A stretch of DNA of 64,000 nucleotides from Nemertoderma westbladi (taxonomy: Eukaryota > Animalia > Xenacoelomorpha), in the NCBI GenBank assembly GCA_032718475.1, contig JAUCBJ010006976.1, positions 1-64,000 on the forward strand. Reading direction: 5' to 3'. A program made the translations under genes and the position numbers. The number at the start of each line of letters is the position of its first letter. Position 1 is the stretch's first letter. The notes under the pieces are model-generated. The model did no database searches, was not told the origin of the DNA, and saw nothing but the letters and a program-made list of their open reading frames with translations. Shown piece after piece: positions 952-20,377 of this stretch.

Positions 952-1167
952 GTTTTATACTCAGAACTTCAGAATTTATTGGAATTTCATGGAGACGAAA
1001 TTATCCGGGATTTATTGCCGATAGTAACGAACCTGTTGGAACGTCTGGACTCCGCCTACACGGAAACCGAACGATGTCAGACGGAGTGTGAGACCATAAT
1101 GAGGGAGAGAGATGAGCTCCAAAAACGATGCGACATAGAAAGACACAACAGAAGAATTGTGGATAAA
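952..1167 (+). CDS. Internal coding exon for a divergent RH1 (RILP homology 1 / Jnk-SapK_ap_N) domain; probable alternative 5' exon of the JIP3/4 gene or part of a paralog
   Basis: Pyrimidine-rich acceptor ttttacctccaag| before 952 and donor |gttagt at 1168; 216 nt, phase 0-0. It translates to VLYSELQNLLEFHGDEIIRDLLPIVTNLLERLDSAYTETERCQTECETIMRERDELQKRCDIERHNRRIVDK, which aligns without gaps over 72 aa to the end of the JIP3 exon at 18974-19357. Confidence 0.8.
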
Positions 1168-1378
1168 GTTAGTAAATTGAAAATATTATTGCTGTTATGC
1201 TGTTATTGCTTAATGTTATTGCTTATTATTTACAAAATTTATTATTTATTTACAAAAAATTTCTAATCTCACTCAACACCAACCATACATGTGTCAGTTG
1301 GATTTATCTGGAAGGCAATGGTATTTTTTGTTTGTATGTGTGTTCTGCAATGTTTTAGGTGTAGCTAGTTAGATTAAC

Positions 1379-1432
1379 ATGTGTCCTGTACGGGTTAGTG
1401 TAGCTGATGAGCCAAATCCCGGCGAAACACAT
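1379..1432 (+). ncRNA. Hammerhead ribozyme, type III topology
   Basis: Stem III ATGTG (1379-83) pairs with CACAT (1428-32). GTC triplet with cleavage after 1385. Stem I CTGTAC (1386-91) pairs with GTGTAG (1398-1403). Core CTGATGA (1404-10), stem II GCC/GGC (1411-13, 1421-23), GAAA (1424-27). The loops GGGTTA and AAATCCC are complementary. Confidence 0.85.
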
Positions 1433-1684
1433 ATTCAAAAATGTAACTAAATATTAATTATTATTTTTCCTTAATTATTTTATAATTAAAGACTTTTTTA
1501 GAACAATAATAAAGAATTACGTTAATACCGAAAATTTGTAAATAGTAGCTATTTTTTAAATTAATGAGAGATTAATATATCTATTGAAAAAATATTAATT
1601 AAAGAAATATTAATTGGTAAACCCCCTGACACATATGGTTGGTTTTAAGAGAGATTAGAAAGTTTTGTGAATATATACAGTACA

Positions 1685-1731: not shown

Positions 1732-1770
1732 GTCTGGGATCCATGAAATGAAACTGACGAAAACACTATT

Positions 1771-1835
1771 TCCGTAACTGCAACCAAATCTCTTGTTTAC
1801 AGTCCGTAACTGCAACCAAATCTCTTGTTTACAGT
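1771..1835 (+). repeat. 32-bp direct tandem duplication at the left edge of the Penelope-like element
   Basis: tccgtaactgcaaccaaatctcttgtttacag occurs twice, at 1771 and 1803. Confidence 0.9.
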
Positions 1836-2527
1836 AAACTTATACAATCTTCAGTACCCCGAGGCCAGAACCAGACCCTCGAGCATTTTCACGACCTTCT
1901 AAGCTCCATCGAATCAACCATTAAACCTAACATTGAGAAGAACTTGAATACTGGTCTCCAAGACGCTTTAATTAAACTCCAACAAAATGACGCGATATTT
2001 GCAACGCGGATAAAGGTGGAGCTATCTGCATTCTCACCAACAATCAATACGAACAACTGGTGGATCAACACCTATCCGATACCAACACTTATGAAACTGC
2101 CTCAGCACAAAACGACATAGAGACAAACCGCCGGGTTAAGGACCTTTGCACCAAAAAATCACTTACCAGTCAAGAATATTTTTACCTCACAAACTTCAAA
2201 CCCAAATCAAGCTACATCCATGTCCTTCCCAAAATTCACAAATCCGACACCATAAGTCGCCTTAGAGACACAGTTGAAGATGGTGTTCTAGAAACTACTT
2301 TCCCTAGTGACCTGTCATCGCGACCCATCATCGCCAACATAGATTCCCCAACTTCACGCTTGTCCGAGTTGATGGATGAGATTTTTAAACCTATCGTACG
2401 ATCCACACCAAGCAATTTAAGGGACACCAAAGAATTTATTAATAGCCTTCCAAATAACACCGATGTAGGAACCACTCTATTGACCATGGACGTAAAATCA
2501 CTTTTCACATCCATCCCACGCGAGCAA

Positions 2528-3377
2528 GGATAGTTATAAAACCCGAAAATAACGAAAAAGACGAATTTAACAGCGAAAATATCAAAATTATCAAACAATC
2601 TACAAAATCTCGCTTTCCAATAAGATGAGTATAATTAGAAGTCACACTTTACATTTTTTAATTAATAAAATCCGATAATTTCGCCCCATTTTCGACCTTA
2701 AAAGTAATTTAATACCAAATACTGTCTACTGGTTGGTTGGTGGGTGTTGACCAATAATGGCAGCTTGGATGAATGACTCAGCATCAACAGATCTGTAGCC
2801 TATAGGGGCCTACTGGTGTATTACTGTACAGTACAAGCATATGGTACGGTACAGCCTGAAGCGGCAAAGTTGAAAGAAGCGGTCCGGTACCCTAACCCAA
2901 TACTGCAACGATGTAATTCCCATATGAAATGTTGTTTGCATTACGGCATACGGTACCTTTAGCGCTACCTGGCCTAGGTGTGCACTGTAGGCCTACAGTG
3001 ACTGTCAGGCAAGTGACGCGGCGCGGCGGATGTGAACAGGTGAACGTAACTACAGAATTGCAGTCCAGAAGTCGCTAGAACTGCAGTAGGCCTACACTCT
3101 GACTGTACTGTCCTAATTTGAGCGCCATCTTGTGGTGTTTTGCAATCATTGGATCACCCCTAACAACCAATCAGCAGCGCCAGTATTTGGTATTAAATTA
3201 CTTTTAGGGTCGAAAATGGGGCGAAATTATCGGATTTTCTTAATTAAAAAATGTAAAGTGTGCCTTCTAATAATACCGATCTCACTGAAAAGCGAGATTT
3301 TATTTAAAGTTTTATAATTTCGACATTTTCGTTAATAATTTCGTCTTTTTCGTTTTTTTCGGGTTTTATAACTATCC
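2528..3377. mobile_element. Non-autonomous Mutator-like (MULE) MITE, 850 bp
   Basis: Imperfect terminal inverted repeats of ~230 bp (GGATAGTTATAAAACCCG ... CGGGTTTTATAACTATCC); 9-bp target-site duplication CGCGAGCAA at 2519-2527 and 3378-3386; splits the Penelope RT at SIPREQ|G. Confidence 0.88.
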
Positions 3378-3574
3378 CGCGAGCAAGGCCTTGAAGCCCT
3401 AGAGTTTTGGATCGATGAAAAACCAGATCTTATACCCGATCGCTTTGAAAAGGAATTTATTGTAAATTCAATGAACATAATACTTAAATATAATTTCTTC
3501 CAACACACTAATAAAGCGACCAACATTACTCAATTCTACCACCAAACGACAGGGGGCGCTATGGGTTCTAAATG

Positions 3575-4550
3575 GTAGATGTATATATATGCAAGTTGTC
3601 AGTGACAAACAGGCAGTATGGGGTCTGACTGGCTGAAAATAGATCTAGTAGTGGTAAACGTTATCGGCCTAACGGCCTGCTTCAGACTATAATTAAAGTA
3701 AGCAAATAATATAAAACTAACATTTAAAATTCCCTCCACCAACACCAAGTAGAACATAACCAAACGAAGACGGGGGGGGGGGGGGGGGGGTGGGCAACAA
3801 ATGCTGAATGCTGTAAATACTAATTACAGTAGACACATTAATTGGGTCAGAACAAAATAGTGTTGCACGGTGAAATTCAAATAGTAATTTTACTACTACT
3901 ACTAGGTCGAGCGAACTCGGACAGTGGAAATGAGATCCTTCCAGGCTTCCCGATTCTCCATAGCTGTCGCAATTTCGTTTCTCCCAAGTTCAGTATCCCT
4001 TTCAAGTTGATCTATATATGTTATGGCAGGTCGTCCACGACTACGCTTTCCATGAGTTGGTTGCCAGAGAAGTAGATCTGGTATGACCTCGTCTTTACTT
4101 CGCCAGCAGTGCCCACTGAATCTTAATCTGCGTTCACGGAGGGTGGTTGATAGAGGTGGTATTGTACCATAAAGCTCGGCGTTTGTCATGTTTTGTCTCC
4201 AGCTGATGTTTAGGGCTGCCCTTAGTAGTCTTGTGTAGAAACCATCAATTCGTTGTTCAAGTGATTTAGTCAGTGTCCAGGTCTCACCCCCGTATAAAAA
4301 TATACACTTTCCACTGTGGCTCGAAAGAACTTAGTCTTCAGGTGCCTGGAGAGATCTGATTTCCAGATGGTATCCATTTTTGATAGAGCTACCCAAGCCT
4401 TTGCTTTCCTTAGCCTAGCTCTTTTAGAACGCATAAACTATAAACGACGGAGTAGTATTGCAAGCGGTGAGTGAAATCGAAATACTGTAGAATTAGAATT
4501 GCATCGTAATTTATAACGCGCAAAGTGTGGGGAAGAAAAATATCATAATA
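3575..4550. mobile_element. 976-bp composite insertion in the Penelope RT, containing a LINE 3' fragment
   Basis: 11-bp direct repeat GGTTCTAAATG at 3564-3574 and 4551-4561; the Penelope frame (AMGSK|CIPNY) resumes exactly after it. Confidence 0.8.
3891..4415 (-). mobile_element. 5'-truncated RTE-like LINE, 3' end (family A)
   Basis: Minus-strand translation KAWVALSKMDTIWKS...ETWTLTK..RIDGFYTRLLR...RERRLRFSGHCWR...LLLWQP...RGRP; (TAG)n tail at the stop codon. Confidence 0.85.
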
Positions 4551-4948
4551 GGTTCTAAATGTATACCGAACTACTCTAATCTTTTCATGGCCTATCTAGA
4601 AAATCGCACATTTAATATAATATTATCTAGTTATGGACGCACATGCGCCAATTACTTCTTAGAGGCGTGGAAGCGCTACATTAATGACTGTTTCGCTTTA
4701 TGGCTGAAATCACTGGCGCTAACAATCACTGCGCTATTTCTAATCATGAACAACTTGTTTCCTAGTATAAAGTTCACCATGGAAGAAAGTGACAAATCCA
4801 TAAATTTCCTTGATGTCACAGTCAGCATTGAAAAACATAAGATAAATCTCGATATATACACGAAACCTACAGATTCCATGCGCTACCTCAACTATAATTC
4901 CTGTCATCCCCGACACACTTTAAAGAATATTCCCTACAACCTATCAAA

Positions 4949-5190
4949 AAAAGCAAACAGTCGGCCGAAGCCGGAGGCGACCCGAAGGCTCCTCTTTCGA
5001 TAGCTGCTACCCGAGGGTAGGGGTGGGCGCTACTCCTATCCCAAGATTTGCTCCCAGTTATTTAACTGGTACTCATTTTATCGACCCCAGTGGATGAAAG
5101 GCTGAGTGGACCCTGGCGGGGCTGAACCTACAACCATTAGATTGCAGGCCCGGCGCTCAACCAACTGAGCTACCCCGCCTTCCAACCATT
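4949..5190 (-). mobile_element. tRNA-derived SINE, probably with a Deu/Nin-type central domain
   Basis: Minus strand has an A box (GTAGCTCAGTTGG), a B-box-like GGTTCAGCCC and a central CACTCAGCCTTTCATCC..GGTCGATAAAATGAGTACC (domain identity from memory). 14-bp TSD TACAACCTATCAAA at 4935-4948 and 5191-5204. Confidence 0.85.
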
Positions 5191-5800
5191 TACAACCTAT
5201 CAAAGATAATCGTAATGATAGTGAATAACAATGAAACCCGTGATAAACGACTCAAAGAATTAAGCACAGCGCTTATAAACTGTTCTTATCCGACAGACCT
5301 CGTACAAAGAGCCACTGACGAATCCAAAAAGCTATGAAGAGAAGACCTACTGAGAGACCAACAGAGAAAGGAAAATCCCATAATTCCATTTGTAACAACT
5401 TTTAATCCTAACGTTGTCAACAAATTCCGAGAAACGATAAAACACGCATTCGAGACACTTAAACAGAACAGTCGAACGAAGGGGAAATTGTGCAACAAAC
5501 GACTGGTACTCGCACAAAAACAACCTCCTTCCATAAAAAGAATCCACATAAGATTTGGAAAAGATTCCACAAAACACAATTAAAAGTGGAAAATCCGGGA
5601 ATTAAAAAATGCCACAGTCATAGATGCCAACTATGCAATATAATAATAACTGGGAAAGACATCACTTTCAAAAACGGCAAATCCTTTAAAAGAAAGTCCG
5701 CATTAACCTGTAACAGTACCAACATTATTTACGCGCTTTTCTGCAAAAACTGTAATGAGTTCTATATCGGTGAGACCAACAACTTGAGAAACAGAACCAA

Positions 5801-5880
5801 TACACACCGCCAACAGATAAACACTCCACACCGCCAACTGATAAACCCTCCACACCGCCAACAGATAAACACTCCACATC
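5801..5880 (+). repeat. 27-bp in-frame tandem triplication inside the GIY-YIG region
   Basis: HRQQINTP / HRQLINPP / HRQQINTP in ORF 5490-5996. Confidence 0.8.
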
Positions 5881-6535
5881 TACGTCAATTAATTTGCAGC
5901 AAGCACGTTTTCACCTGTAGCTCAGGTGACTTTAACATAGCCCCACCCACTATTTCAATTAAAAACTCCCAATATTGCGCTCCGACAAGAATATGAAACC
6001 CACTTCATTAAGAGGCTTAAACCAGGGTTAAACTCTTATTCCCCTCCATAAACAGAACACACCAACAGCGACCAATAGAAAACGCGGGGGCGTTAGGGAA
6101 TTCCCGCATTCTAAGCCGCCACCTACAGTATATCAACCAACAATAACTCAAATCCCACCACCTGAAGAGGCCGAAAGGCATTAATAATTATTAATTATTA
6201 ATTAAAAATGCATTAATAAACTGGCTGTTTTTTTTAAATTATAAGTTTACATTAATATACTGAACATTGATTTATTCGAGTTATTTATTTATTTTTTATT
6301 TATTTACATAATATATTTCAATGGACAAACTATGATTTGGAACTCAACCTAACTTTTTCAATTTTATATATATATATATATATACAGTATACTTTATCTT
6401 GCTCGAAGGCCCCACGAACGTTTACCTTTTAGGTGGTGGTTACCATAACAGTAGGCCTACATACAAATCACTTAGGGTTTAGACGGAAGAATTTAGCTGA
6501 AAGTATACCTAACTGTGAACTAATGGCATTCTGAG

Positions 6536-8630
6536 CTACTACTACTACTAGGATCGGCATGCTGCGTTGCAGCTGCATTTTTAAGAATGCTGTGCCGGCT
6601 TGTCAACAAAATTGCACCGCCACAACTCCCTATCACCCATGACATTTGCTAGATCATCCGCATCTTTAAGGCCAGTGTCCTTTAAGATGCGTCTCAAGAA
6701 AGTCATGGGCTGTCCACCATGCTTATTCACTCCATGAGGTTGCCAAAGTACAAGATTATGCACTGGCTGGTCCTCACGGCGAAAGCAATGTCCTGCAAAG
6801 CGGAGGCGATTTTGTTCTAGTGTCAAGCTTGGGGGAACCAATGAGACACCTCCAATGTTATATAGTGTCTGGTTGGAGATGTGTGCATTGTACTTGACAC
6901 AATGAACCCGGCGTAGCATTCTTGTGAATGTGCCATCCAGAGATTTGGTGTCCTCAGCAGTTAGAGCCCAGCATGGACTCCCATAGAGGAGTACTGGAAC
7001 TACTGCTGCTCTAAATAATCGGACCTTAAGTTTCCGATTAATTCTCGGTGACTTCCAAATCCTGGAAAGCCTATTCAAGGCTGCCCATGCCTTTCCCTTA
7101 CGTATTCGAAGGTCCTCACCTGACTTCCGGATCCATGATCCCAGGTAACAGAAGTCGTCCACATGCTCAAGCATACCATCCTTTGAGCTTATGCTCATCC
7201 GATCAGAGACTTGCTGAGGACTTTCAAAGTTAACTGTCAGAATTTTGGTCTTTCTGGAGTTAATAAAAAGACCAACACTAGAAGCAGCATGTTCTAATGA
7301 GCTGAGGAGCCGTTGGGCTCCCTCTAATGATTCTGAGAGTACTCCTAAGTCATCAGCAAAGTCTAGATCAGTTAGGTACTTGGCAGGATTTCCTCGACTT
7401 CTGGAGCCAGTAGGTGGAGTTATCATCACCCCATCATCATTATGATGATCTAAGGACATGCGTAGAACATAGTCAACCACAATAATGAACAAGAATGGTG
7501 CAAGTGTGTCTCCTTGGAGGACGCCCCATAACACTTCAAATGGTTCTGTGTCACCGTCAACAGTAGACACAAATGTTGTCGAACCATCGTATACTGATCT
7601 GATTGCTGCAATAATTTCATCAGGAATCCCATATAATGAAAGTATGCTGAACATACGTGATCGAGAGACTGAATCAAAGGCCTTGAAGAAGTCAACAAAG
7701 ATAACAGCCAGATGCCTGTCTTTCTTTTTTGATAATTCTTCAATTATCCTTCTAAGTGCCAAAATGGGCTCCATGGTCCCACGACCTTTACGGAACCCAT
7801 TCTGATTTCCACGGAGCAGTCTCTCAATGGGATCCCTGATGCGATTTAATAGAATCCTATTGTATAGCTTTGCAGCAATCGAGATCAATGAGATTCCCCG
7901 AAAAGAACCATAGAGTGTTAGGTTGCCCTTCTTGGGAACTGGCACCAACTTATTTGTTTTCATTTCTTGTGGGACTCTTGTTGTACGGTACATGTCTACT
8001 ATGATGGGATAGATGAGCTTTAAACACTCAGGTATTTTAAAGACCTCAGGGGGAACACCATCTACTCCACTGGCACGATTGGTCTTAATGCTCTTTGCAG
8101 CAGCCTTCACTTCTGCAAAGGAGATATCGCCAATGGGAATATCTGGGAGTACAGACTCAGACACCTTTACTTCTATAAAGTTATCAGGCAATACCCTGTC
8201 ATTATTGAGGAGCTTTTCAAAGTGGGCTTTCCAACCATTGAGGCGATCGGCTGGTGATTCAGCCTTAACCTTGGTGGTTGGTTGGCTTTTCCGCCCAGTA
8301 AGCAGATTGATCGATTTCCATGCCTGGGATGATTGCCTGCTGTTGTCAGCATCATTGATGGCATCAACCTGTTGGTTTATTAGCTCCTGTAGATTAGCAG
8401 AGTACTGCCTGTTCAGGGACCTAGATGCAGCCTTAACTGCATTCTTGGCCGCTGTAGTCTGTTTGAGTCGGGACTCTTTCTGCGCCTTATGAAGGTCATT
8501 TCGGCACTTTTGAATTTTGTTGTCAGTCCAGGGGGCCCTTTTCCTGTTTCGAGGGTATACAGGAACTGTTTCTGCAGCTGCTAACTTAACTGCTTCTGTA
8601 AAGGCAGTATAGCCCTCACAGTGATGCTAC
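6536..8630 (-). mobile_element. 5'-truncated RTE-like non-LTR retrotransposon (family B) with an intact RT domain
   Basis: Long RT ORF, 3' UTR of about 30 nt and a (TAG)n tail at 6536-6550; no endonuclease domain visible; 5' boundary approximate. Confidence 0.92.
6581..8191 (-). CDS. Non-LTR reverse transcriptase of the LINE; the frame appears to stay open upstream to about 8620 with no true start codon
   Basis: ASGVDGVP, PKKGNL, FRGISL, QNGFRKGR, FVDFFKAFDSV, GVLQGDTLAPFLF, DFADD, FCYLGS. Confidence 0.85.
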   Translation of the reverse strand: MPDNFIEVKVSESVLPDIPIGDISFAEVKAAAKSIKTNRASGVDGVPPEVFKIPECLKLIYPIIVDMYRTTRVPQEMKTNKLVPVPKKGNLTLYGSFRGISLISIAAKLYNRILLNRIRDPIERLLRGNQNGFRKGRGTMEPILALRRIIEELSKKKDRHLAVIFVDFFKAFDSVSRSRMFSILSLYGIPDEIIAAIRSVYDGSTTFVSTVDGDTEPFEVLWGVLQGDTLAPFLFIIVVDYVLRMSLDHHNDDGVMITPPTGSRSRGNPAKYLTDLDFADDLGVLSESLEGAQRLLSSLEHAASSVGLFINSRKTKILTVNFESPQQVSDRMSISSKDGMLEHVDDFCYLGSWIRKSGEDLRIRKGKAWAALNRLSRIWKSPRINRKLKVRLFRAAVVPVLLYGSPCWALTAEDTKSLDGTFTRMLRRVHCVKYNAHISNQTLYNIGGVSLVPPSLTLEQNRLRFAGHCFRREDQPVHNLVLWQPHGVNKHGGQPMTFLRRILKDTGLKDADDLANVMGDRELWRCNFVDKPAQHS

Positions 8631-10783: not shown

Positions 10784-11709
10784 GAGTGAATATGTGGGGT
10801 GTCTTCCTTGTTTAGTCATTGTGTACAGCTGAATTAAGGAAGTATTAACATGAGTGAATATGTGGGTGTCTTCCTTGTTTAGTCATTGTGTACAGCTGAA
10901 TTAATGAAGTATTAACATGAGTGAATATGTGGGTGTCTTCCTTGTTTAGTCATTGTGTACAGCTGAATTAATGAAGTATTAACATGAGTGAATATGTGGG
11001 GTGGCTTCCTTGTTTAGTCTTTGTGTACAGCTGAATTACTACTACTACAGTACTACTAGGATCGGTATGCTGCATTGCAGCTGCATTTTTAAGAATGCTG
11101 TGCCGGCTTATCGACAAAATTGCACCGCCACAACTCCCTATCACCCATGACATTTGCTAGATCATCCGCATCTTCAAGGCCAGTGTCCTTTAAGATGCGT
11201 CTCAAGAAAGTCATGGGCTGTCCACCATGCTTATTCACTCCATGAGGCTGCCAAAGTACAAGATTATGCACTGGCTGGTCCTCACGGCGAAAGCAATGTC
11301 CTGCAAAGCGGAGGCGATTTTGTTCTAGTGTCAAGCTTGGGGGAACCAATGAGACACCTCCAATGTTATATAGTGTCTGGTTGGAGATGTGTGCATTGTA
11401 CTTGACACAATGAACCCGGCGTAGCATTCTTGTGAATGTGCCATCCTCCATCCAGAGATTTGGTGTCCTCAGCAGTTAGAGCCCAGCATGGACTCCCGTA
11501 GAGGAGTACTGGAACTACTGCTGCTCTAAATAATCGGACCTTAATTGTCCGATTAATTCTCGGTGACTTCCAAATCCTGGAAAGCCTATTCAAGGCTGCC
11601 CATGCCTTTCCCTTACGTATTCGAAGGTCCTCACCTGACTTCCAGATCCATGATCCCAGGTAACAGAAGTCATCCACATGCTCAGCTGAATTAATGCAGT
11701 ATTAACATG
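10784..11709. repeat. 67-68 bp tandem repeat, 4 copies, the last split by a LINE
   Basis: Units start at 10784, 10852, 10919 and 10986 (gagtgaatatgtggg...); the fourth unit is completed at 11694-11709. Confidence 0.9.
11039..11682 (-). mobile_element. 5'-truncated copy of RTE-like LINE family B
   Basis: Near-identical to 6536-7168 with a small frameshifting duplication near 11445; 11-bp TSD CAGCTGAATTA at 11028-11038 and 11683-11693. Confidence 0.93.
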
Positions 11710-12310: not shown

Positions 12311-15307
12311 CTACGAGATTCTTTTGATTTTCATTAAAACTTTTTCAATATATGTGGTATATACGAATTTGTTACTTATATTATTCCACATGTATATAGG
12401 TATTGTTCCTTCGTTCTTAATTCGGTTGAAGTCTACCATGATGCCTTGTTTCTTTCCGATTTTCCACCAAGTACCACAATCAGTAACGCAACTATCATCG
12501 CAATTTCGTTTATCAGGGAATACGCTGTTGTTGTAAGATGACATGAAATCGCTCCAATTCCCAGCGTTGTCTAAATTCCCGGTTACTTTGTAACCGTCGA
12601 CAATCAGGCGGTAATCCGTGCTGTTTCCAACAATGAATCTCGAATATTCAGTGGAGTAACTAACTTTTTCCCCAAAAATTATATCAATTCGAAGTGACAC
12701 AACTCCATCTTTGGTCAGATTCGATAATTTATCTAATCCCACCCAATACCCGCTATCTCCACGGAAACCGTCAACGTATTTGTTATCTTGGCAACTTTGT
12801 TTAAATGTCTCATCACCCTTTTCACTATCCCTTTCCATTATGACTAACCACGGTCCTTCGCATTTGACCTTTTCATTGAATCCAAATCGGGTAGCGGAAA
12901 TAGTTTCATTATTTGACACATCTGTGCATGGAAAATCGAACGATAAAATCTGTATTATGAAATGTATCATCAAAGTAAACGTTAACACATTGCACGACAC
13001 TGAGGTAATTAGCACAAGAACCAACCAAAACCGTCTTGTAGGCCTACTTAGTAATTGTACACTAATTCTCTTTAGCAATGCAAAGATATTTTCTTTATTT
13101 GTGAAGCCAACATCACTGCCACTGTCCTTCCTATCTTCAACACTATCTCTCCCAATGTCTTCCTTCTGATCCCCAATATCATCACCATAAACCACATCAC
13201 CATTTTGTCCCACTATATCATTAACCACATTTTGATTTTGACCCACGATATCATTAACAACTCTTCCACTTTGACCCACGATATCATTAACAACTCTTCC
13301 ACTTTGACCCACCATATCATTAACAACTCCTCCACTTTGACCCTGCTTATTAACCACATTTCGATATTGACCCACCATATCATTAGCAACTTTTCCATTT
13401 TGACCCACCATATCATTAACAACTCTTCCACTTTGACCCACCATATTAACCGCATTTTGATTTTGACCCACCATATCATTAACAACTCTTCCACTTTGAC
13501 CCACCATATTAACCACATTTCGATTTTGACCCACCATATCATTAACAACTCTTCCACTTTGACCCACCATATTAACCACATTTCGATTTTGACCCACCAT
13601 ATCATTAGGAACTCTTCCACTTTGACCCACCATATCATAGTCAACTCTTCCACTTTGACCCACCATATCATTAGCAACTCTTCCATTTTGAGCCTGCTTA
13701 TTAACCACATTTCGATTTTGACCCACCATATCATTAGCAACTCTTCCACTTTGACCCACCATATTAACCACATTTTGATTTTGACCCACCATATCATTAA
13801 CAACTCTTCCACTTTGACCCACCATATTAACCACATTTCGATTTTGACCCACCATATCATTAGGAACTCTTCCACTTTGACCCACCATATCATAGTCAAC
13901 TCTTCCACTTTGACCCACCATATCATTAGCAACTCTTCCATTTTGAGCCTGCTTATTAACCACATTTCGATTTTGACCCACCATATCATTAGCAACTCTT
14001 CCACTTTGACCCACCATATTAACCACATTTTGATTTTGACCCACCATATCATTAACAACTCTTCCACTTTGACCCACCATATCATTAACAACTCTTCCAC
14101 TTTTACCCACCGTATTAACCACATTTCGATTTTGACCCACCATATCATTAGGAACTCTTCCACTTTGACCCACCATATCATTAGCAACTCTTCCACTTTG
14201 ACCCACCATATCATTAGCAACTCTTCCACTTTGACCCTGCTTATTAACCAAATTTCTATTTTGACCCACCATATCATTAGCAATTCTTCCATTTTGAGCC
14301 TGCATATTAACCAAATTTCGATTTTGACCCACCATATCATTAACTACTCTTCCACCTTGACCCACCATATCATTAGCAATTCTTCCATTTTGACCCTGCA
14401 TATTAACCACATTTCGATTTTGACCCACCATATCATTAGCAATTCTTCCATTTTGACCCACCATATTAACCACATTTCGATTTTGACCCACCATATTATT
14501 AGCAACTCTTCCACTTTGACCCACCATATTAACCACATTTCGATTTTGACCCACCATATCATTAGCAACTCTTCCACTTTGACCCACCATATCATTAGCA
14601 ACTCTTCCACTTTGACCCACCATATCATTAGCAACTCTTCCACTTTGACCCACCATATCATTAGCAACTCTTCCACTTTGACCCACCATATTAACCACAT
14701 TTCGATTTTGACCCACCATATCATTAGCAACTCTTCCACTTTGACCCACCATATCATTAACAACTCTTCGACTTTGTCCCTGCATATTAACCTCATTTAA
14801 ATTTTCGCCTCCAATATTATTTACGACATAGTCTTCACCATCAATGTTTTGAACCACATATTCTTGGCCATCTACATTATAAACCTTATATTCTTGACCT
14901 TCAATATTATAAACCTTATATTCTTGACCCTGGATATGATTATCCACATTTCCATGTTGGTACTCAATATGATTAACCACGTTTCCATTTACACCATTAA
15001 TATTATTATTAACCTCATTTAAATTGTCGCCTCCAATATTATTTACGACATAATCTTGACCATCAATGTTTTGAACCACATATTCTTGGCCATCTACATT
15101 ATAAACCTTATATTCTTGACCATCAAAATTATAGACCTTATATTCTTGACCCACATATTGATTTTGACCCGCAATATCTTCGACTCCCTCTTCCCATCTA
15201 CCCCCAGCCTCACCCAATTGACCATTAACATTGTTATACACATTTTCCGAGGGATCGATATAGCTACTTATATACTGCCGAGGTAGTCTTCTTCCCGAAT
15301 CTCCCAT
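12311..15307 (-). CDS. Intronless type II membrane protein (~998 aa): repetitive N/Q/G/V-rich N-terminus, one transmembrane helix, C-terminal fibrinogen-related domain (FReD)
   Basis: Uninterrupted ORF from ATG 15307. Basic stretch RPTRR precedes a hydrophobic segment FWLVLVLITSVSCNVLTFTLMIHFIIQILSF. FReD motifs: C..GPWLVIMER, F..YVDGF..YWVGLDKLSNLT, LRIDI, EYSRFIV..DYRLIVDGY, C..GTWW, terminal LMKIK. Confidence 0.85.
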   Translation of the reverse strand: MGDSGRRLPRQYISSYIDPSENVYNNVNGQLGEAGGRWEEGVEDIAGQNQYVGQEYKVYNFDGQEYKVYNVDGQEYVVQNIDGQDYVVNNIGGDNLNEVNNNINGVNGNVVNHIEYQHGNVDNHIQGQEYKVYNIEGQEYKVYNVDGQEYVVQNIDGEDYVVNNIGGENLNEVNMQGQSRRVVNDMVGQSGRVANDMVGQNRNVVNMVGQSGRVANDMVGQSGRVANDMVGQSGRVANDMVGQSGRVANDMVGQNRNVVNMVGQSGRVANNMVGQNRNVVNMVGQNGRIANDMVGQNRNVVNMQGQNGRIANDMVGQGGRVVNDMVGQNRNLVNMQAQNGRIANDMVGQNRNLVNKQGQSGRVANDMVGQSGRVANDMVGQSGRVPNDMVGQNRNVVNTVGKSGRVVNDMVGQSGRVVNDMVGQNQNVVNMVGQSGRVANDMVGQNRNVVNKQAQNGRVANDMVGQSGRVDYDMVGQSGRVPNDMVGQNRNVVNMVGQSGRVVNDMVGQNQNVVNMVGQSGRVANDMVGQNRNVVNKQAQNGRVANDMVGQSGRVDYDMVGQSGRVPNDMVGQNRNVVNMVGQSGRVVNDMVGQNRNVVNMVGQSGRVVNDMVGQNQNAVNMVGQSGRVVNDMVGQNGKVANDMVGQYRNVVNKQGQSGGVVNDMVGQSGRVVNDIVGQSGRVVNDIVGQNQNVVNDIVGQNGDVVYGDDIGDQKEDIGRDSVEDRKDSGSDVGFTNKENIFALLKRISVQLLSRPTRRFWLVLVLITSVSCNVLTFTLMIHFIIQILSFDFPCTDVSNNETISATRFGFNEKVKCEGPWLVIMERDSEKGDETFKQSCQDNKYVDGFRGDSGYWVGLDKLSNLTKDGVVSLRIDIIFGEKVSYSTEYSRFIVGNSTDYRLIVDGYKVTGNLDNAGNWSDFMSSYNNSVFPDKRNCDDSCVTDCGTWWKIGKKQGIMVDFNRIKNEGTIPIYMWNNISNKFVYTTYIEKVLMKIKRIS
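13205..14800 (-). repeat. Coding minisatellite of interleaved 33-bp and 30-bp units, about 50 units
   Basis: Peptide units NDMVGQSGRV(A/V) and NMVGQ../..GQNRNVV; all length variants are multiples of 3. Confidence 0.92.
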
Positions 15308-17149
15308 TGTCACTTTTCTATCAGTTGTGCGAATACCTATAATGTTCCGTTTTTGTTAATAGGTAATTATACAGTAGATTTTTATATTCTAGAAAATAAC
15401 TAACTTCAGAACCCACAGCAACTATAAAACAATAATTTGGGCCTAGTAATGTTATAAATAAAGTATCTGCGTACACATTACAGCACGTGGACACACCCCA
15501 CAACTGATGTAGTTGCCAATGTTATTATTATTATTATATTTATTAATTCACTCGCAGATTGGGTTAAATATTTTGTAAGGTTTTTTTTAAAATACAGTAT
15601 ATAAAATGTGATTCCAAAATCACTATACGGATAAAAAGGAGGCTACAGAACGTCGTACTCCGTAGCCTATATATTTGATGGGATTAGTCCTACAATTGAG
15701 CCAATAATTTATATGATATAAGTTGTTTTTCGCAATACTGTAACTATTTATTTTATAAAATAAAAGTAGCATTTTTGTTCAACTTTATAATCCTCATTTT
15801 GAAGGAATAGTAAAAACATATTTTTTCGAGGCCGCGTATTCGATAATTCTATGTAGGGAATCTACAACCATTGTTAACAATTTGGATGGAGGCTTGTATC
15901 ATTTTCCAAACAAAAGTAATCTAGATAAGCAGTGATGTCCCAGTGAGGCTAATACATAGGATTTACCTCAAGAGCAAAATGGATCCGAATAAACTTTACA
16001 ATTAATAAATTAATAATATATAAATTAATTAATAAATATTACAACAACTGTATCCTTCAGTCAGAGTCCATACGGGTGAACTGTTGAGTCCACTCACGTA
16101 AATACTATTTCAGACTTCGACAGACTACATGCGTACCAGTCTGCAGGGATGGTCTAAACACGTTAGGTTTAATTTTCCCGAGATTCTCTGAAATAGGTCG
16201 CCCACTTCGTTGCTCGCTCCACACTCATTTATGACACCATATATTACACAATCTCCCTTAAGTCGGAGCCCGCCCCCAAATTTATTTTCAAACTTCAATC
16301 AAACTTCTTACTGCTGGCATGGCCGGATTATTCAATATTGAAATATTTTATTTAGATGCAACATAGATAAAAATGGGTGTTTATAAATATTTAACCATCT
16401 TTGTTGGCTTGGAATGTAATCTAGATAACATTAGAACCGCCTTCTGTTGAAGATTCCGAATCTGAAAACCGTTTTAAATTTTACACCAATATATACGTAT
16501 ATATACATTTTGACACGTAAATCTATATATTCTAATGTTTTTTACTCAATTCTAGAATATTAATTACGCGTAATGAAGAAACAGGTAAATAAATGAATAA
16601 TTGGAGTTGAGCTGTTAATGCAACTGTAATTAATTATATTAATTATTAATTAATATTATGGTTTGGTCATAATAAGCAGCAGCATGGTCTAGTGGTGACA
16701 TTCAAAAAAATAATTTAATTGTTTAATTGTTTTAATTTTTTAATTTTATCTTTTAATTTATTTTCTTCAATTGTTAATTGTTTAACTCTGTTAACCAAAA
16801 TTATGGTTAACAGAGATACAAAAATTGCAATTAAAAACTGCACATTTAAAATGGGTGGTGGGGGGTTGGGGGGTTGTAGTTTGATTTGGCCCTGGGCGCT
16901 GCACACACTCGGGTCCGCCTGCACCTGCATACAAGGATTCCAAAAATATAAAAACTTTTGAATTTTGATGGGATGAAATAGCTGAGATATGGACAAGATA
17001 TAGCCGAGGATTCGAATGTTGCATGCATGAAGGCCACTTTGCTTCCCATCCAGGCTATTTGTTCTATTTAATAAACGCAATTAATTTGTTTATCACTAAA
17101 ATTCATCATTCATAACTATTTTTTATTGTCATTGCGATTCTTTATTGCG

Positions 17150-18662: not shown

Positions 18663-18745
18663 TTTGCTTTTGTTGACAAGCCGGCACAGCATTCTCTGAT
18701 TCTTAAAAATGCAGCTGCAATGCAGCATGCCGATCCTAGTAGTAG
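18663..18745 (+). mobile_element. Very short (~80 bp) 3'-end copy of LINE family B
   Basis: Encodes FVDKPAQHS followed by the 3' UTR and (TAG)n tail; TSD TTGCCTACTCTT at 18651-18662 and 18746-18757. Confidence 0.88.
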
Positions 18746-18973
18746 TTGCCTACTCTTCCTACCGGTGTTTCATCTGTTCATATCTGCATGTATTCCGGCT
18801 GTGCGGTGCAGTGAGGTTTGAGGTAGTACAGGTAGTAGTAGAGTATAGTGATAGATTTATTTCTATGCGATATCGATGTACCGCTACCGGTACAATACTG
18901 CTGTCCATTATTACACGACCCACTTCAGCGCTTCCAATCAAACAGCTAACTCGATAACATTCTAAACGCGAGA

Positions 18974-19357
18974 ATGACGAATTTAACGTCATCATTTAGT
19001 ACCGAGGTAGTCTACACGGGGGATGAGGATTCCTTCCCGGCGGTTGTCTACTCGGGTACCGGTAGTCCATCCAGCTCGGCGAACAGCGACGAGGCAGCTA
19101 ACCAATCACTGATGTCGCCGAGAGTGTCTCATCTTGCGAGCTCCATATACAAAGAGTTTGAGAGAATTATCACAGATTACCACGAGGACTCGATAAAGAC
19201 GTTGATGCCTCTTGTGGTCTCATTGTTAGAGACTTTGGATCAATCGGTCACTGATGGGGATGATAGGGAGGTTGAGAACGATCTTCTGAAGGAAGACAAC
19301 GAACAGCTAGTTACTCAGTACGAGAGAGAGAAACAGTTCAGGAAGTTGGCAGAACAG
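18974..19357 (+). CDS. MAPK8IP3: JIP3/JIP4 (sunday driver/UNC-16) first coding exon, RH1 domain
   Basis: MSPRVSHLASSIYKEFERII..LMPLVVSLLETLD..LLKEDNEQLVTQYEREK matches the JIP3/4 N-terminus; donor CAG|GTACCG at 19358, phase 0. Confidence 0.95.
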
Positions 19358-20256: not shown

Positions 20257-20377
20257 AAAATGATTCAGGATGAAGATCTTTTCGAACAGGAACGACGGGA
20301 GATGATGGAGAGAATCGATTCTCTGGAGAGCAACACGAGGAATCTCGATGCTAAACTCAAGAATTACGTGGAACAAG
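20257..20377 (+). CDS. MAPK8IP3: JIP3/JIP4 coding exon 2 (121 nt)
   Basis: Acceptor ttattgtctag|, translation KMIQDEDLFEQERREMMERIDSLESNTRNLDAKLKNYVEQ, donor AAG|GTATGA; matches JIP3 KFIEFED..LELKAKNYADQ. Confidence 0.93.

Follow-up and report, generated by a model that had tools for sequence, protein, structure and literature searches.

A complete type III hammerhead motif in a likely intron of Nemertoderma westbladi, very probably a copy of a mobile or repeated element

A sequence with all the parts of a self-cleaving hammerhead ribozyme, in the type III form that plants and phages usually have, stands in what is likely an intron of Nemertoderma westbladi. Is it a switch that acts on the gene around it, or the passenger of an element that has moved through the genome? 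An earlier note on this DNA had left both possibilities standing: the motif could cut the pre-mRNA co-transcriptionally and tune the upstream isoform, or it could be a remnant of a retrozyme or of the Penelope-like element that lies downstream. We addressed the question in the first 64,000 nt of contig JAUCBJ010006976.1 (hereafter the window), to which all coordinates refer.

The hammerhead motif and its predicted fold

Three features are needed to describe the motif in its immediate setting:
952 to 1167, plus strand: likely exon with an RH1 domain, phase 0-0, its own 5' start codon absent, at single-copy depth.
1366 to 1378, plus strand: segment complementary to 1394-1406 (12/13 pairs, three of them G.U).
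1379 to 1432, plus strand: type III hammerhead motif, for which cleavage is predicted between 1385 and 1386 and whose loops I and II could form 5 bp.

On sequence grounds, 1379-1432 was confirmed as a real and complete type III hammerhead motif, with the full core, three stems and GUC site that the earlier note had described. Stem III (1379-1384 with 1427-1432) is made of six Watson-Crick pairs including U16.1-A15.1, stem I (1386-1391 with 1398-1403) of four Watson-Crick and two G.U pairs, and stem II (GCC/GGC, 1411-1413 with 1421-1423) of 3 bp. The three helices (6/3/6 bp) follow the type III order, I and II being closed by loops and III open. The core consists of CUGAUGA (1404-1410) and GAAA (1424-1427); cleavage is predicted after C17 (1385), the last base of the GUC triplet 1383-1385. 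Every position of the RF00008 core set (C3-U4-G5-A6-N7-G8-A9, G12-A13-A14, A15.1-U16.1 and H17) is present. Loop I reads GGGUUA and loop II AAAUCCC, and GGGUU (1392-1396) is complementary to AAUCC (1415-1419) through four Watson-Crick pairs and one G.U pair (-4.3 kcal/mol as a duplex). The pairing capacity noted earlier between the two loops is thus present, and a tertiary contact between them is possible.

Dinucleotide shuffles of 1-20,600 yielded a type III match in none of 1,000 trials, on either strand and with strict or relaxed stem lengths, and 1379-1432 is the sole strict type III match within the 64-kb window. The Rfam search that had been suggested as a check had a divided outcome: when 131 nt were searched, RF00008 matched 1378-1433 over its full model (1-54, loops unaligned; E 2.4e-4), at 27.5 bits and hence under the gathering score of 48.5. 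The motif was unreported when longer stretches (481 nt and 6000 nt) were searched with RF00008, and no ribozyme was found on the minus strand by pattern or Rfam search. Two other readings of the motif were rejected, the sole type I reading, in which stem III is only 1 bp long and stem I is poor, and a long-helix reading from 1336 with a GUU site and a penalty of 13 kcal/mol.

The motif starts 211 nt past the GT at 1168 and on the same strand, and the predicted cut lies 218 nt past this likely donor, in agreement with the earlier placement about 210 nt into an intron in sense orientation. The intron itself would follow from the AG/GT frame, in which 72 open codons (952-1167) stand between an AG at 950-951 and the GT.

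Adopting the hammerhead state would cost the window copy 7.7 kcal/mol alone and 13.3 kcal/mol with 40 nt of 5' flank, in a folding model that omits the loop-loop pseudoknot and Mg2+ and in which part of the penalty comes from the same loops pairing in nested form. Among 32 de-duplicated, putatively active phage type III motifs, drawn from 44 loci matched by a loose pattern, the median penalty was 1.1 (maximum 5.4) alone and 2.0 (maximum 5.7) with flank, and in neither condition did any of the 32 have a penalty as high as the window copy. A predicted hairpin formed by 1366-1406 (-11.9 kcal/mol) would block the hammerhead fold and is predicted to form ahead of the complete ribozyme; the effect of this blocking flank is marginally beyond chance (5/300 shuffles with 40 nt, 22/300 with 20 nt, and 60/2000). 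Slow cleavage of the window copy in its context is what the model predicts.

The phage loci deserve a brief description of their own. Proper type III stems occur in 44/44 of them (L001-L044), complementary loops in several (L005, L019, L022 and L040), and a second motif nearby in two (L004 and L013).

Repetition of the motif and the unit that carries it

The repeated part was delimited by contig depth:
1378 to 1447, plus strand: highly repeated module, the ribozyme and about 15 nt of 3' tail, with approximate edges set by 36-nt depth bins and by contigs covering 1370-1447.

Four of seven public contig sets were compared with 600-1669 at 80% likeness, six of the seven containing part of the window and none of these being listed as RNA. 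The set X2 may be the sample behind the window's assembly; X3 comes from another study and gives independent support. One X2 contig, identical over 1307-1419 and at a depth of 31.3 against 29.6 for the RH1 exon, is the locus studied. Other X2 contigs (326 and 378 nt long) hold the motif with 5 and 8 differences, four X2 contigs diverge from the window at 1432 and three at 1354 into other sequence, and a 615-nt contig of X3 holds a diverged copy with 8 differences. Comparison of copies and flanks, as the earlier note had advised, thus places the motif on several contigs with different flanks.

Summed depth in the three bins of 1356-1463 reached 27,028, 72,192 and 35,702 in X2 and 5,375, 15,420 and 5,008 in X3, the peak bin being 1392-1427 in both sets, whereas the flanks of the unit in X2 lie between 37 and 420. 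The resulting X2 ratio of motif to exon, about 2,400, is not a copy number (it would fall to about 80 on the assumption that each base is counted 31 times), and summed contig depth does not separate dispersed copies, tandem arrays or another kind of high-copy element. The animal holds at least tens of copies of the motif, probably hundreds. Conservation is confined to about 1378-1447, the motif being better conserved than its flanks, and AATAAA stands shortly downstream in one loose-end consensus. Since the exact contig is at single-copy depth, each 31-letter word of the window copy up to 1389-1419 should be private, judging from the word length, and the window copy would therefore differ from the abundant form; this difference may lie in the two G.U pairs of stem I. 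As the motif is heavily repeated, a passenger of a jumping element is likelier than a control switch of a gene, and we consider it very probable that 1379-1432 is a copy of a mobile or repeated element.

Cover was uneven among the other sets, and missing cover is no proof of absence. Depth on the RH1 exon is zero in X3, X5 and X6. X5, which has the same organism label and a high depth on 600-852, has zero depth on 1320-1427; the family might be missing from that sample, or this might be only a filter or library effect. In X6 (another organism label; RNA, by our guess) one contig covers 1391-1447, showing 1 difference, and stops at 1391, which is 5 nt away from the predicted cut; we gave it no weight as an RNA end.

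The motif lies inside a larger unit bounded by inverted repeats:
1243 to 1677, plus strand: non-coding unit with the ribozyme, 435 nt, 27% G+C, with a few related copies at a likeness of at least 80%.
1243 to 1297, plus strand: left-hand arm of the imperfect inverted repeat, the two arms being 83.6% alike over 55 columns (E 4.7e-9).
1626 to 1677, minus strand: right-hand arm, with a TA run directly after it, supported by a related X2 contig.
1339 to 1366, plus strand: possibly a second, decayed version of the ribozyme's 5' half (1380-1405), borderline, since 25/2000 shuffles and 1/504 real tiles score as high.

In a related X2 contig the body of the unit (1541-1621) is followed by the left arm in reverse complement, and terminal inverted repeats common to family members were found in this one related contig. 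Related contigs of X2 and X3 have ribozyme and body in unchanged order (joint 1398-1471), and a few share the 3' body of the unit; by contig depth, body and arms are low-copy and the ribozyme is high-copy. The flanks of the unit are AT-rich, with TA at both outer ends by eye and no clear target duplication. The fold of 1240-1680 is strong (z -7.0) because of the arms alone, which fold on both strands; inside the arms it is no better than that of shuffles (z -0.5), so that the unit without arms gives no sign of a rod-like circular RNA.

Two shorter signals were discarded. The words ACATGTGTC and ACACATAT, common to the inner ends of the arms and stem III, did not align significantly (370/2000 and 1512/2000 shuffles), and TA-CAG-TA was dropped as a transposon footprint, the word and its complement occurring 20 times in 20.6 kb.

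The arms can be read in two ways: as the inverted truncated end of a Penelope-type insertion, or as fixed transposon termini. Penelope elements are known for inverted truncated copies and for TA targets (PMC8557442); arms that fold on both strands could equally be the termini of a DNA transposon. The 435-nt unit would then be a DNA element of the MITE kind, flanked by its terminal inverted repeats, and the abundant hammerhead module would be cargo that it carries or has received, the ribozyme spreading by another route. Such an element would account for 55-nt arms at both ends, for the match of the related contig's right arm to the window's left arm, for a low-copy body and arms beside a high-copy ribozyme, for folding without strand preference and for the TA at the outer ends. 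However, it sits less well with the absence of a clear target duplication and with the ribozyme-body order that related contigs retain; moreover, the arms match none of the transposon ends compared, and we found no description in the literature searched of a type III hammerhead in a transposable element with terminal inverted repeats. We therefore regard a MITE-like origin as unlikely.

Tandem satellite-like arrays of the abundant form, or its derivation from an integrated viroid-like circular RNA, would make the window copy a stray fragment. The very high summed depth could stem from arrays, the 6-bp stem I, 3-bp GCC/GGC stem II and 7-nt loop II resemble phage motifs, and type III is typical of subviral circles (PMC7936874). 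Yet flanks vary among contigs, and neither an opposite-strand ribozyme nor a rod-like fold inside the arms was found. Furthermore, none of the 44 phage loci from the loose pattern is related to the window motif outside the core, metagenome contigs gave 0 matches to two family patterns and viral contigs 0 to the pseudoknot pattern, and thus no close relative emerged from viral or metagenome contigs; this origin appears quite improbable.

The remaining neighbour to be considered is the Penelope-like element:
About 1732 to 6180, plus strand: broken Penelope-like element, reverse transcriptase then GIY-YIG, 5'-truncated, with nested insertions, separate from the 435-nt unit.
6162 to 6176, plus strand: hammerhead-like core (CUGAAGA, a 4-nt palindrome, GAAA) at the Penelope 3' end, incomplete and type-I-like, with no stem I partner nearby.

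We take this second core to be truncated in stem II or, alternatively, to be a minimal variant of the dimer type. The type III motif lies only about 300 nt from the start of the element and on the same strand, and Penelope repeats carry hammerheads (PMC4209133); it could thus have been the ribozyme of a 5' pseudo-LTR belonging to the adjacent Penelope, or an inverted piece of that element. A Penelope remnant was among the origins offered in the earlier note. The comparison went against it. The best local scores between the unit and the Penelope 3' region (32 and 30) were equalled by 5/200 and 9/200 shuffles and involved AT-rich runs only, and a second comparison of the unit with the Penelope found no homology. 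Moreover, the element begins at about 1732 inside its open reading frame and beside a TA run, it has the different core at 6162-6176, and Penelope motifs are of type I (PMC4209133). This origin is largely refuted and we consider it highly improbable, whereas mobilisation of the unit in trans by some Penelope may have occurred.

The Penelope and its surroundings hold several other insertions. A MITE at 2528-3377, presumably Mutator-like, has inverted repeats of at least 197 nt and an exact 9-bp target duplication and is inserted in the Penelope reverse transcriptase. The 3' fragment of a LINE (3570-4420, minus strand) also lies inside the Penelope, as does a short G+C-richer insertion (4945-5190) with a weak minus-strand tRNA match (Rfam 21.5 bits), possibly a tRNA-derived SINE. 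A different LINE is represented by a copy at 6536-8626 (minus strand) with a 681-aa reverse transcriptase frame and a TAG-repeat tail, by a partial copy at 11042-11701 (minus strand) that is 97% identical to it, and by a third short piece at 18668-18746.

A retrozyme-like origin and known hammerheads

The reading that we favour, and hold to be probable, is that the window locus is a solitary copy, drifted in part, of a mobile repeat that is non-coding and bears a ribozyme, and that it came to lie in a likely intron through a retrozyme-like cycle. A retrozyme remnant had been proposed before, and the many copies with varied flanks are what the earlier note had counted as evidence against a host function. 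We infer every step of the cycle along the lines modelled for retrozymes (PMC7761336). Family transcripts would arise by read-through and would self-cleave after the GUC, giving the ends of a short RNA that is possibly circularised. An autonomous retroelement, most likely Penelope-like, would copy this RNA back into DNA rich in AT/TA; the inverted arm would be a Penelope-type inverted truncated end or a fixed terminal repeat. Selection on the element would preserve the ribozyme while the flanks diverge. At the window locus, the 5' flank would fold over the ribozyme before its transcription is complete; given this predicted misfolding, the host pre-mRNA would be cut slowly, and the insertion would be close to neutral. 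With a single ribozyme, the window copy could not excise a monomer, and its intact core and pairing positions fit either a recent insertion or selection at the site.

Animal retrozyme monomers measure 150-450 bp with a G+C content below 50% (PMC7229834), a range into which 435 nt and 27% G+C fall. Solo monomers are common, and more than 40% of the Xenopus copies overlap introns (10.64898/2026.07.22.740005). The window unit resembles the metazoan non-LTR retrozymes (PMC7229834; 10.64898/2026.07.22.740005) in being non-coding, AT-rich, a few hundred bases long and multi-copy, in having the hammerhead as its most conserved part, in the solitary monomer within an intron and in the presence of Penelope in the same genome. 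It differs from them in its type III motif, single ribozyme, inverted arms and lack of a tandem unit at the locus. The type is a point against a retrozyme-like origin: described animal retrozymes and Penelope repeats carry type I, whereas plants and subviral RNAs have type III (PMC7229834, PMC4209133, PMC6155905, PMC6765202, 10.64898/2026.07.22.740005); that type III is the rarer form in animals, as the earlier note had stated, agrees with PMC7229834, PMC7761336 and PMC3088659.

Other known hammerheads share some of these traits. Plant LTR retrozymes (PMC7229834, PMC7761336) also bear type III hammerheads in a non-autonomous repeat. However, they have two direct LTRs, each with a type III motif and 600-1000 nt apart, more than 55% G+C and non-canonical loop contacts, whereas the window has one motif in 64 kb, inverted repeats, a unit of 27% G+C, a predicted Watson-Crick loop pairing and an animal host. 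The termite and dipteran genomic type III motifs, of the form carried by the HDV-like RNAs of toad and termite (PMC7936874), are likewise isolated motifs in animal genomes with loop I-loop II pairing (predicted here); they have a long helix I with a GCCR internal loop and a 6-bp helix II with a YGGC loop (PMC7936874), unlike the window motif, which is compact (6 + 3 bp) and highly repeated.

A similar architecture is found in the pseudoknotted phage and bacterial hammerheads (Perreault et al. 2011, PMC3088659), which are compact type III motifs with a short stem II and base-paired loops (a pairing that is predicted here). About 40% of non-repetitive hammerheads are predicted to use the loop pseudoknot (PMC3088659); type III pseudoknots are tied to stems I and II differing by 2 bp (Figure S4 legend, PMC3088659), whereas the difference in the window motif is 3 bp. 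Finally, the Penelope pseudo-LTR hammerheads (Cervera and de la Pena 2014, PMC4209133) are comparable in their many solitary, scattered motifs and in their inverted and TA-associated insertions. They are minimal type I motifs that need dimers, in contrast to the full monomeric type III motif of the window, which has no homology to the neighbouring Penelope.

Within an incomplete coverage of the literature, we found no animal for which an abundant, compact type III repeat bounded by inverted arms has been described, and Dataset S1 of Perreault and colleagues may hold similar motifs. It is tentatively suggested that the copies belong to an abundant, undescribed family of non-coding retroelements that carry a compact, phage-like, pseudoknotted type III hammerhead and are bounded by inverted repeats. 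Seehafer et al. 2011 reportedly found motifs of type III in the genomes of many animals, and such a family would then be less novel. If real, the family would break the rule that repeat-borne animal hammerheads are of type I. Repeat-associated animal hammerheads are overwhelmingly type I, and it has even been suggested that spreading may need the type I architecture (PMC3088659); the family would put this idea to the test, and an amplified animal type III would do so directly, with hundreds of natural variants in which to look for covariation of the loop contact. Its insertion footprints would name the mobilising enzyme, and the built-in 5' anti-ribozyme hairpin would keep sense intronic copies harmless.

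The host gene and the surrounding sequence

The likely exon at 952-1167 holds an RH1 domain (Pfam, 36.7 bits). A second RH1 exon at 18974-19357 carries an ATG and is the first exon of a JIP3/4 gene, with 59-69% identity to its best relatives; further exons of this gene lie at 20257 and 20554. Both RH1 exons end at the same position in phase 0, so that the upstream one could splice to 20257, and it is plausible from these junctions that 952-1167 serves as an alternative exon. Its identity to the JIP3/4 first exon is 23%. A family search for its relatives passed 0/346 candidates, and the Atlas clusters obtained for it are generic RH1 only. A coiled-coil partner exon was not evident by eye among the 71 listed plus-strand frames of at least 35 aa, in the intervals outside mobile elements.

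This setting bears on the idea that the copy has been domesticated, i.e. that it cuts the nascent pre-mRNA 218 nt past the donor and thereby lowers or times the upstream RH1 isoform. Sense orientation, a nearby donor, an intact core, a GUC site and complementary loops are all compatible with such a role. Furthermore, domesticated intronic motifs have precedents, regulation of this kind having been proposed for amniote intronic hammerheads and for the CPEB3 ribozyme (PMC6155905; PMC10919898). Nevertheless, the motif is multi-copy, unlike the single or few copies of the amniote HH9/HH10 type, and the region is a pile-up of repeats. In sequence the window copy is distinct from the abundant form, and pairing with its 5' flank is predicted to prevail over the hammerhead fold. 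The exon, whose splicing is deduced, has a low identity to the JIP3/4 first exon, and no sequence relatives of it were found. Co-transcriptional tuning of the upstream isoform, as proposed earlier, is thus unsupported; we consider domestication improbable, and the finding is weak as a case of a host-gene regulator.

Several other features of the surrounding sequence are worth recording. Just upstream of the RH1 exon, another one or two repeats of very high copy occupy 600-852, where summed depth in X2 rises to 256,000, with an internal palindrome at 667-753; an apparent ATG frame at 793 falls in the same repeat. Between the two RH1 exons and antisense to them, 12311-15355 (minus strand) is an open frame of 1014 aa without interruption; its product would have many 13-14-aa repeats in a long array, a hydrophobic stretch and, at the C-terminus, a fibrinogen-C domain. 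The rest of the window, 20606-64000 or about 43 kb, is filled by a tandem repeat with a 40-nt unit (96% identity at that period), which begins inside exon 3 of the JIP3/4 gene. Each 40-nt unit apparently holds the last bases of exon 3 and a GTGAGT donor, so that the 5' splice site would recur about 1,080 times.
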